Below, piece after piece: positions 17,318-19,762 of a stretch of DNA of 25,404 nt. Position 1 is the stretch's first letter. Each line of letters starts with the position of its first letter. The stretch is from a virus (taxonomy: Duplodnaviria; Heunggongvirae; Uroviricota; Caudoviricetes), in IMG/VR virus record IMGVR_UViG_2534681674_000010; one strand, 5' to 3'. A program made the translations under genes and the position numbers. The notes beneath the pieces were generated by a model. It saw only the letters and a list, made by a program, of their open reading frames with translations, had not been told where the DNA came from and did no database searches.

Positions 17318-19762
17318 ATGAGCACTGATAAAGAAGAAATTGCACTGTATTACGAAGCCAAAAATGACAAAGTCAGAAAACGCCTTGGGATTAAAGGCGG
17401 TTTTTACTGGCGCACAGCAAAAAAATTATCGGTTGCAATATCACGGGGTGTTGTCGCAATGGACGATGCTGGATTTGACGAAGAGGATTTCAAAAAACCT
17501 GTTCGCGTGAATTTGCCCATTGTTAATGACCTGCCGCCTGAAGGTGTGTTCGATACTGAATTCTGCAACCGCTATGAAAAAGGCGGGGAAGATGGCATCA
17601 CAATGATATTTATAGCGCCTTCCCCCTCAGTTCAGGACAAACCAGCCAGCTCTGACAATACCAACGTCAATGGCGAAGACATGGCTGAGATTGAGGATAA
17701 TATGCTCCTGCCGATTTCCGGTCAGGAACTGCCCATTCGCTGGCTTGCGCAACATGGCAGCGAAAAACCGGTAACGCACGTTTCACGGGAAGAACTTCAG
17801 GCATTACATATCGCACGAGCTGAAGAACTGCCTGCTGTTACTGCCCTGGCTATTTCCCACAACACAAAGCTGCTCGACCCGCTGGAGATTCGCGACCTTC
17901 ACAAACTGGTACGCGACACAGACAAAGTTTTCCCTAATCCCGTTAATTCCAGTCTGGGGTTAATGACTGCTTTTTTCGAAGCATACCTGGACGCTGACTA
18001 TACCGATCGAGGTCTGCTGACAAAAGAGTGGATGAAAGGAAATCGTGTTTTACGCATCAGCCGCACGCCATCCGGCGCTAATGCTGGCGGAGGAATTCTT
18101 ACCGATCGCGGTGAAGGTTTTGTCCACGATGATGCGTCAGTAGAACGTGACGTTGCCGCTGGCGTTCTGGCCCGTTCAATGGACATCGATATTTACAATC
18201 CACATCCGGCACACGCCAAACGCATTGAAGAAATCGTTTCAGAGAATAAGCCGCCCTTTTCTGTTTTTCGTGACAAATTCATCGCCATGCCTGGTCACCT
18301 GGATTATTCCCGCGCGATAGTGGTTGCGTCCGTGAAAGAAGCACCAATTGGTATCGAGGCTACTCCCCACCGTGTTACCGAATATCTGAACAAAGTACTG
18401 ACCGAAACCGACCATGCCAACCCTGATCCAGAAATCGTGGATATTGCCTGCGGTCGCTCCTCTGCTCCAATGCCGCAGCGTGTAACAAAAGAAGGAAAAC
18501 AGGATGATGAAGAAAAACCGCAGCCATCTGGCGCAATGGCAGATGAACAGGCAACGACTGAAGCAGTGGAACCGGATACAACTGAACATAATCAGGACAC
18601 GCAGTCGATGGATGCTCAGCCACAGATAAATTCTGTTGATGCGAAATATCAGAAACTGCGGGCAGAACTCCATGAAGCCAGGAAAAACATTCCGCCCCAA
18701 AATCCTGTCGATGCAGACAAATTACTGGCTGCCTCTCGCGGAGAATTTGTTGAAGGGATTAGCGACCCGAATGATCCGAAATGGATTAAGGGGATCCAGA
18801 CCCGCGATTCTGTGTACCAGAATCAGCCAGAAACGGAACAGAACGACCAGAAAGCGGAACAGAACAGCCCAAATACGCAACAAAACGAGCCAGAAACGAA
18901 ACAACCTGAACCAGTAGTGCAACAGGAACCGGAAAAGATCTGCACCGCCTGCGGTCAGAGGAGTGGCGGCAACTGCCCTGATTGTGGCGCGGTGATGGGC
19001 GACGCAACATACCAGGAAACATTCGATGACAAGAACCTGGTTGAAGTTCAGGAAGACGATTCGGAGAAAATGGAAGGCGCTGAACATCCACACAAGGAGA
19101 ATGCTGGCAGCGCTCAGGACCACGCCAGCGATAGTGAAACTGGCGAGACGGCAGATCCCTTAATTACGGTGAACGGTCATCGCATTATCACATCCACCAG
19201 CAGGACGTGTGACCATCTAATGATCGACCTTGAAACCATGGGAAAAAATCCTGATGCCCCGATTATCTCAATAGGTGCAATATTTTTCGATCCGCAAACC
19301 GGAGATATGGGACCGGAATTTAGTAAGACTATCGATCTGGAAACTGCTGGCGGAGTCATTGATCGGGACACCATTAAATGGTGGCTTAAGCAATCACGCG
19401 AAGCGCAATCTGCCATTATGACCGATGAAATCCCGTTAGATGATGCACTGTTACAATTGCGGGAATTTATCGACGAAAACTCCGGTGAATTTTTTGTTCA
19501 GGTCTGGGGAAATGGAGCCAACTTCGACAACACGATTTTGCGCCGTTCATACGAACGGCAGGGGATCCCCTGCCCGTGGCGTTACTACAACGATCGCGAT
19601 GTACGCACAATCGTTGAGCTGGGGAAAGCCATAGACTTCGATGCCAGAACTGCTATCCCATTCGAAGGTGAGCGCCACAATGCGCTGGATGACGCTCGTT
19701 ACCAGGCAAAATACGTTTCAGCTATCTGGCAAAAACTGATCCCGAATCAGGCTGATTTTTAA
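17318..19762 (+). CDS. 814-aa YdfE-position protein with C-terminal DEDDh (DnaQ-like) 3'-5' exonuclease domain
   Basis: Exo motifs [25 protein letters not shown] in last ~180 aa; internal [16 protein letters not shown] zinc ribbon; acidic Q/E/P-rich low-complexity linker; GAGG RBS. Confidence 0.7.

Follow-up and report, generated by a model that had tools for sequence, protein, structure and literature searches.

A RecE-type N-terminal region joined to a DEDDh exonuclease domain in the early region of a Qin/Rac-like lambdoid prophage

A hybrid gene in place of recE

The stretch of DNA analysed here (the window; 25,404 nt, IMG/VR record IMGVR_UViG_2534681674_000010, Caudoviricetes) carries on its plus strand, at 17318..19762 including the stop codon, the coding sequence of an 814-residue protein in which the N-terminal scaffold of the recombination protein RecE is joined to an exonuclease domain of the DEDDh type. 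An earlier note on this DNA had described a single open reading frame (ORF) of 814 codons, encoding a large early-left protein in the slot where lambdoid phages have exo/bet or recE/recT. Both statements hold, the slot being that of recE-recT in Rac, and neither recT nor another annealase gene lies between the ORF and the xis and int genes that follow it. The ORF starts with ATG, is intact and is the longest in its part of the window. Many complete genomes of O157:H7, O145, and O103 strains contain the gene at 100% identity (WP_000102168.1), and RefSeq names its product 'exonuclease' or '3'-5' exonuclease'.

The C-terminal domain (aa 618-814; 19169..19759, plus strand) is a catalytically complete DEDDh exonuclease of the DexA/Rv2179c family. 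Residues 633-804 match PF16473, the Rv2179c-like 3'-5' exoribonuclease domain, with E=2e-67 (226.7 bits against a Pfam cutoff of 27), over profile positions 2-177 of 177. None of the five catalytic residues is missing, these being D637 and E639 (in MIDLET), D737 (in NFDNT), and H787 and D792 (in HNALDD). They make up the complete motif set, with D-x-E in Exo I, D in Exo II, and H-x4-D in Exo III, and they align with D7, E9, D119, H186, and D191 of T4 DexA. An alignment with 12 homologues (59-91% identity) shows no variation at four of these positions; at the fifth, D737, a single sequence has N. An AlphaFold2 (AF2) model of aa 618-814 is confident, with a predicted local distance difference test (pLDDT) value of 82.3 and a predicted template modelling score (pTM) of 0.82. 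When this model was compared with solved structures by Foldseek, the best matches were to T4 DexA (8KEN/8KEL; E ~1e-9, TM ~0.7), with RNase T, oligoribonuclease (Orn), and REXO2 ranking after it. There were 109 matches in the PDB at E<=1e-3, and all of the 50 matches listed are DEDDh-type exonucleases, which identifies the fold as RNase H-like alpha/beta. By sequence, DexA is the sole match in the PDB (E=1.6e-6). The ratio of nonsynonymous to synonymous substitution rates (dN/dS) of the domain is 0.18-0.20. Therefore, the assignment of the last ~180 residues to a DEDDh 3'-5' exonuclease, as made in the earlier note, is well founded, and the absence of catalytic DEDD residues, which that note had considered, is not seen on alignment.

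The same note had held that only these ~180 residues were recognisable, which proved to be wrong. Residues 1-617 match the NCBIfam model NF007259 (RecE/exonuclease VIII) at model positions 1-603 of 877 with 1093.2 bits, which does not reach the equivalog cutoff of 1269, and aa 58-617 are 75% identical over 560 aa to aa 50-592 of RecE from the K-12 Rac prophage (BLASTP). In Pfam, PF06630 'Exonuc_VIII' matches aa 56-189 (E=4e-34). At the level of DNA, similarity between the window and Rac recE extends over 17656-19164 at 83% and ends there (blastn). Beyond aa 617, BLASTP similarity to RecE is absent, and no Pfam match was obtained anywhere in the 814-residue protein to PF12684, the PD-(D/E)XK 5'-3' nuclease domain that corresponds to the crystallised core of RecE and occupies aa 615-850 of the K-12 protein. 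The homology to Rac recE, in DNA and protein alike, comes to an end at aa ~616-617 (19164..19169, plus strand), corresponding to RecE aa ~592. Because the homology to RecE stops where the 5'-3' nuclease of RecE begins, the protein is a nuclease-domain swap on a RecE N-terminal scaffold, with a sharp junction. The replacing nuclease is of a different superfamily from that of RecE, and, going by its family, it would act with a polarity opposite to that of the 5'-3' exonucleases RecE and lambda Exo, as had been expected in the earlier note.

The scaffold starts with a small alpha/beta domain and also contains a helical region, flexible acidic linkers, a stretch of heptad repeats, and a Cys4 knuckle. 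The alpha/beta domain (aa 1-100; 17318..17617, plus strand) is the only part of it to be modelled confidently, with AF2 pLDDT values of ~76-90 at aa 11-100; its first 57 residues differ from K-12 RecE, and BLASTP homology begins at aa 58. The RecE-type 'Exonuc_VIII' region (aa 58-298; 17489..18211, plus strand) is, despite its name, not a nuclease domain; it is 74% identical to K-12 RecE and has a dN/dS of 0.29. Next comes the segment (aa 299-385; 18212..18472, plus strand) that is conserved most widely within the scaffold family and that, according to phmmer mapping on representatives, is also found in YdfE/Tritos-type proteins (see below). It is followed by a linker module (aa 386-617; 18473..19168, plus strand), which combines low-complexity acidic stretches with a helical segment, heptad repeats, and the Cys4 knuckle, and which RecE and the Tritos-type proteins have as well. 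In its acidic linkers, the counts of D+E versus K+R are 13 versus 4 (aa 385-440), 10 versus 4 (aa 495-540), and 17 versus 3 (aa 562-620), and a dN/dS of 0.65-0.75 in aa 563-620, the last acidic linker, points to relaxed constraint there.

Two further features of the linker module had been predicted. The imperfect DNA repeats that the earlier note placed at about 18820-18920 within an acidic linker are four imperfect tandem repeats of 21 nt at 18818..18903 (plus strand), detected by Tandem Repeats Finder and a repeat finder. They encode 7-residue units rich in Q, N, E, and P (QNQPETE, QNDQKAE, QNSPNTQ, and QNEPETK), and K-12 RecE is shorter by 14 aa, i.e. two units, in this region, as seen from a gap in the BLASTP alignment. 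The predicted Cys4 zinc ribbon is likewise present, as a zinc-knuckle motif C542-x2-C545...C553-x2-C556 (18941..18985, plus strand) with a weak Pfam match to DZR (E=0.068). This motif is kept in K-12 RecE; it is confined to the E. coli-type linker module and a few others, and is absent from most of the distant members of the scaffold family.

A match covering at least 80% of the gene is present in 1252 of 5426 complete E. coli genomes, and a single O157 genome has up to nine matching places (partial or full, with recE-type genes counted too). The DEDDh version is among the commonest prophage genes of pathogenic E. coli. Outside the linkers, most of the other measurable segments have dN/dS values of 0.1-0.3. 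The ORF is real, intact, and under purifying selection, and its pattern is beyond chance because of the extreme E-values from hidden Markov models, the identical full-length copies in many genomes, and these low dN/dS values. Public annotation records both Pfam domains of the protein under varying labels, which include 'exonuclease', 'exodeoxyribonuclease VIII', '3'-5' exoribonuclease', and 'RecE family'; the label 'exonuclease VIII' is wrong for a protein of the DEDDh type.

The window represents the early region of a Qin/Rac-like lambdoid prophage, and over positions 1-21474 it shows 99.8% identity to the prophage that strain F6294 of E. coli O157:H7 carries at ompW. The genes on the strand of the 814-codon ORF follow the order dicA - ydfABC - DicF - dicB - ydfD - 814-aa gene - xis - int. 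The small RNA DicF lies at 16628-16679 (plus strand; Rfam), dicB at 16852-17040 (plus strand), and a DUF1482/ydfD-like gene at 17037-17225 (plus strand), the latter two being drawn from the ORF list and the annotation of the 99.8% identical region in CP038372. Directly downstream of the hybrid gene are xis, encoding the excisionase (19827-20075, plus strand), and the integrase gene int (20053-21108, plus strand), which is frameshifted near its 3' end. Its ORF has 351 aa versus 376 aa in the CP038372 prophage, diverging after '...DYNWRANGT', so that the frame of the C-terminal catalytic segment (FHEQRSL...IDIYNDARG) is lost; the prophage of the window may be unable to excise. A scan for promoters and terminators gave no signal above chance, including upstream of the 814-aa gene. 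In Rac and in the Rac-like phage 666R9, recT adjoins recE, and no annealase or Gam is found in the annotation of the window or of the whole genomes of phage Tritos and PPompW_EH1846.

Relatives and the modules carried by the scaffold

The possibility of a fusion created by an indel, raised in the earlier note, is contradicted by the relatives, as the same architecture is found in Tritos, vB_EcoS-640R1, Citrobacter, and Kluyvera. The homologue in vB_EcoS-640R1 (813 aa) retains the fused architecture intact and is 76% identical overall, and that in Tritos, a complete phage genome, is an intact fusion of 823 aa with 64% identity over aa 299-813. In both phages the gene order is dicB - ydfD - gene - xis - int. 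The Tritos protein shares a 97% identical DEDDh domain with the window protein, whereas its N-terminal ~270 aa are unrelated, being of the YdfE type and replacing the RecE-type PF06630 region. In Citrobacter (P0448) and Kluyvera (P0281) the fused architecture is accompanied by an N-terminal identity of only 31-35%. A comparison with full-length YdfE homologues, as proposed in the earlier note, was informative in part. K-12 YdfE consists of the first 256 aa of the Tritos-type sister protein, truncated by IS2. The sister shares aa 299-813 with the window protein, but its N-terminus, the part that K-12 YdfE represents, is unrelated.

Since the identities of individual segments differ sharply between relatives, the gene is a recombinational mosaic of modules. 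Residues 299-385 are 91% identical to RecE and only 34% identical to the 640R1 protein, and genes that otherwise diverge have nuclease domains of 97-98% identity. Split genes were considered as a 'Rosetta stone' for a partnership between scaffold and nuclease and were rejected, as the apparent splits are assembly gaps or frameshifts; a case in E. coli (L036) is caused by Ns in the assembly, and one in Citrobacter (L042/L043) arose from the fused form P0448 by a frameshift. Many of the 'standalone' E. coli entries of ~180 aa that start with MIDLETMG probably result from truncated gene calls.

The scaffold family is small. An exhaustive HMMER search with aa 1-617 against 1.84 billion cluster representatives returned only 236 proteins at E<=1e-3, and the named members are from Escherichia, Salmonella, Citrobacter, Kluyvera, and Enterobacter. 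A search with aa 1-400 returned near-identical partial E. coli entries only, and a profile of distant members is needed to capture the diversity. Among the family members of at least 450 aa, whose C-terminal modules were surveyed, 19 representatives carry the RecE PD-(D/E)XK domain and 13 the DEDDh domain. A third module of ~260 aa (alignment A2) is found on seven representatives (P0249, P0275, P0309, P0315, P0319, P0332, and P0373) and has a conserved helix, 'KKSLTDA.KKAL..LGF.ADI..GLYD'. It also exists on its own, in phages of Pseudomonas, Vibrio, and Pectobacterium, as a protein of some 200-260 aa annotated 'exonuclease' or 'DNA repair protein'. Weak, sub-threshold Pfam matches to Rad52/22 were obtained for six of the seven members (best E=0.0024), and a sequence match in the PDB was not found; the module may be an unrecognised annealase family that has been mislabelled as exonuclease.

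Other members of the family have no nuclease. In P0243 (703 aa), the scaffold (aa 49-527) is joined directly to a RecT-like C-terminus with the motif '...WEEMAKKTAIRRLFKYLP...', the likeness to RecT being judged by eye on this single representative; it appears as though the nuclease domain had been deleted between recE and recT. A group comprising P0242, P0288, P0313, P0314, P0328, P0333, P0335, P0338, P0346, P0364, and others ends in a conserved tail of ~50 aa, 'QQLTIAALQGLCANPA...IP.MA'; P0242, for example, is 69% identical to the window protein over aa 1-616 and then has the short tail in place of the nuclease. Another nuclease-less group has a coiled-coil tail finishing in '...HGE'. Pfam matches none of the three types tested, i.e. 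the RecT-like segment, the ~260-aa module, and the short tails. The nuclease-less members are probably the 'RecE-2' proteins, RecE relatives without a nuclease domain that are reported in PMC12315714.

The same source describes DnaQ-like 3'-5' nuclease genes in the early-left operons of lambdoid phages, often adjoining int (Genome Res 2025, PMC12315714), so that a DnaQ-type nuclease at this position is already known and is not new. Neither a fusion of the RecE scaffold to a DnaQ nuclease nor a range of scaffold modules appears in its main text, and no description of a RecE-scaffold::DEDDh fusion or of modular scaffold cargo was found there or in the searchable literature. Literature queries on ydfE as an exonuclease, on PF16473, and on Rv2179c in phages returned nothing relevant.

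RecE is a workhorse of recombineering, and yet two thirds of the protein are without known function. The N-terminal part of RecE is evidently reused: some proteins combine it with a nuclease of presumably opposite polarity, some with other modules, and some lack a nuclease altogether. This argues for an autonomous role of the scaffold, which might be targeting, bridging of ends, or binding of a partner. The scaffold family thus constitutes a natural set of chimeras for probing the role of the N-terminal two thirds of RecE, and we see the main value of the finding in this.

Possible roles of the hybrid protein

The window protein may be compared with two known enzymes, one for each of its parts. 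Its similarity to RecE (Rac, K-12 b1350, 866 aa) takes in the PF06630 region, the acidic linkers, the heptad repeats, and the Cys4 knuckle, and the genes of both have corresponding positions in the early-left operons of related prophages. However, RecE has a PD-(D/E)XK 5'-3' nuclease (PF12684) and recT next to it, whereas the window protein has a DEDDh domain and no recT after it. With T4 DexA (exonuclease A), a phage-encoded 3'-5' DNA exonuclease, it shares the Pfam family and the DEDDh set. In contrast to the window protein, DexA, which is ~22% identical, is a standalone enzyme of 227 aa with extra loops and comes from a virulent phage with hydroxymethylcytosine (hmC) DNA. T4 DexA forms a dimer/tetramer (PMC12153337). 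The residues implicated in tetramerisation of DexA and in its reading of 5hmC are only partly kept in the window protein, which has P706/D709 for S87/D90 and Y757 for W152; an equivalent of DexA D169 is not reliably alignable.

On balance, we favour the view that the gene product is a modular protein that a Qin/Rac-like lambdoid prophage makes early in its lytic phase and that acts as a tethered 3'-5' exonuclease on DNA ends. Our confidence is high for the biochemical part of this explanation and low for the biological part. Judging from its family, the domain would bind a free 3'-OH end and take off single nucleotides in succession, proceeding 3'-5', with D637, E639, D737, and D792 holding two Mg2+ ions and H787 serving as the general base. 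It would probably work as a homodimer, as does T4 DexA; RNase T and oligoribonuclease also act as homodimers. The genomic context suggests co-transcription with dicB from the DicA-repressed early-left promoter, in which case the protein would be made on induction and not in the lysogen. The substrate would be DNA ends, and the scaffold would be a tether or targeting module, the same one that improves end-to-end recombination by full-length RecE, which beats the bare nuclease domain at linear-linear recombination (review PMC11611040). DNA is the likelier substrate because the closest solved relative is the DNase DexA and because the other cargo of the scaffold consists of DNA recombination modules. 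As no annealase is encoded, the protein would not be part of a two-component recombinase of the RecET/Red type. Its most likely role, we infer, would be to trim 3' tails, or make them blunt, on DNA of the phage or the host in the course of replication and recombination dependent on host enzymes.

Several points weigh against a tethered DNA-end exonuclease. Polarity, preference for DNA over RNA, and oligomeric state are all extrapolations, and PF16473 is named after an exoribonuclease (Rv2179c). An AF2 model of aa 1-400, built with 22 sequences, had a pTM of 0.31 and was confident at aa 1-100 only, and a Foldseek search of the scaffold model against the PDB gave nothing below E=0.8; with neither a usable model nor a fold match for the scaffold, the tethering role is an analogy with RecE only. 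As stated in PMC12315714, 3'-5' exonucleases acting on single-stranded DNA usually inhibit homologous recombination, so a positive role in recombination is not obvious. Frameshifted copies of the gene exist (in PPompW_EH1846 and in Citrobacter L042), and the gene is therefore dispensable for prophage maintenance. Moreover, a Salmonella prophage (L032, 4743-6570) has, directly upstream of xis-int, a genuinely standalone, scaffold-free DEDDh exonuclease of 189 aa that is 60% identical, and thus the nuclease evidently works untethered in the same slot. In that prophage, a DndB-like gene (PF14072) and DUF2303 and YfdP genes precede the standalone nuclease, so the slot is the same and the upstream partner is different.

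A broader proposal, which is speculative and in our estimate rather unlikely, would extend the tethered exonuclease to the whole scaffold family. The N-terminal region of RecE, of ~600 residues, would be a general delivery scaffold of enterobacterial lambdoid phages, whose interchangeable C-terminal effectors for DNA ends would be nucleases of either polarity (5'-3' or 3'-5'), an annealase-like module, or short adaptor tails. In DEDDh phages lacking an annealase and Gam, the tethered exonuclease would condition ends, for instance by removing 3' tails, for the host RecBCD/RecA, and the fusion would be the whole 'recombination module' of the phage, one that would operate by way of host enzymes instead of single-strand annealing. 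If it were true that the enzyme cooperates with RecBCD/RecA, this would represent a third recombination strategy of lambdoid phages beside modules of the Red/RecET type and Chi enrichment.

A role in defence or superinfection exclusion was also considered. The protein would then be an HREX-like nuclease, a DexA homologue that the prophage retains to degrade incoming phage DNA with modified cytosines, as reported for EcD of E. coli, and we consider this unlikely. The neighbouring gene, dicB, protects against some phages, which fits such a role, and the sole result of PADLOC is a weak, generic DEDDh match (E=1.7e-5). EcD ('HREX') is a bacterial DexA homologue, claimed to be a constitutive defence protein, that is reported to degrade T4 DNA and to protect E. 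coli (PMC12153337). It belongs to the same Pfam family and, unlike the window protein, is standalone (~189 aa). A 189-aa protein taken to be EcD, on the basis of the published primers and the position of A78 although the reverse primer is not an exact match, is 38% identical to the window domain (E=2e-37). However, the window gene ends a repressed early-left operon with no promoter-like signal above chance and should be silent in the lysogen. It also has an Asp (D709) at the position of DexA D90, where EcD has the Ala that is said to make it dimer-only and safe for the host, and a Tyr (Y757) in place of the Trp that is said to read 5hmC (DexA W152). In addition, the EcD-type gene is a different and rarer lineage, present in 31 of the 5426 genomes, and a defence role leaves the fusion to the RecE scaffold unexplained.

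We give a similarly small chance to an anti-defence or RNA-directed exonuclease, which early in infection or induction would degrade nucleic acids of the host or of defence systems if they have free 3' ends, for example the multicopy single-stranded DNA (msDNA) of retrons, small RNAs, or linear signalling oligonucleotides. The 3'-5' exoribonuclease for which PF16473 is named would fit this activity, the folds nearest after DexA are those of RNase T and oligoribonuclease/REXO2, which act on RNA and short oligonucleotides, and the timing of counter-defence would suit early expression. Rac RecE reportedly triggers a retron system through degradation of its msDNA. However, the scaffold partners in other family members are DNA recombination modules, and the closest solved relative, by sequence as well as by structure, is a DNase.

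Very unlikely, in our view, is nucleotide scavenging of the kind known from T4 DexA, in which fragments of host DNA would be converted into mononucleotides for phage DNA synthesis. DexA is indeed the closest solved relative, and scavenging of host DNA is one of its two documented roles. However, temperate lambdoid phages do not, to our knowledge, break down the chromosome of the host, the genes nearby include none for a partner endonuclease, and a scaffold of 600 aa would be needless for the clean-up of oligonucleotides. Finally, a functionless recombinational chimera, i.e. a decaying remnant in a defective prophage, would agree with the frameshifted integrase of the window prophage, the frameshifts of the gene in some relatives, the IS-truncated pseudogene ydfE as its K-12 sister, and its mosaic nature, but this is extremely improbable and largely refuted by conservation, as the frame is intact in ~1250 complete genomes and in phage records, the nuclease domain is nearly identical across divergent genes with a dN/dS of ~0.2, the architecture is kept in Citrobacter and Kluyvera despite their low N-terminal identity, and the catalytic residues are all retained. 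Should neither DNA-end trimming nor any of the other proposed roles hold, the protein would be a DexA-like exonuclease with an unusual N-terminal extension.

Chi sites and other features of the window

The Chi octamer GCTGGTGG occurs 11 times in the window (107-19790) versus 0.89 expected from shuffles, and nine of the 11 sites are on the minus strand, which would be the 'top' strand in the conventional lambda orientation. Two minus-strand sites, at 19194-19201 and 19783-19790, flank the segment that codes for the nuclease domain. This richness in Chi resembles that of the Chi-rich lambdoid phages described in PMC12315714. The idea that DEDDh-type phages form a Chi-rich class without a Rec module proved inconsistent, with 11 sites in 46 kb in Tritos, four in 44 kb in PPompW_EH1846, and five in 39 kb in the Rac-like recET phage 666R9, and it was not used as evidence.

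Elsewhere in the window, Rfam matches at the gathering threshold were obtained for AgvB (4594-4655, plus strand), STnc100 (4657-4849, minus strand), a tRNA (4935-4994, minus strand), the C4 antisense RNA (11517-11600, minus strand), and isrK (11626-11699, minus strand). Rfam also places a sok antitoxin at 10639-10813 (minus strand), alongside which hokD is annotated in the CP038372 prophage. Positions 21475-23750, immediately past the end of the prophage, are unlike the O157:H7 F6294 reference, which has an ompW remnant and insertion sequence (IS) fragments there, and only from 23749 the match to the F6294 locus resumes at 90-96% identity, to distant parts of that locus.

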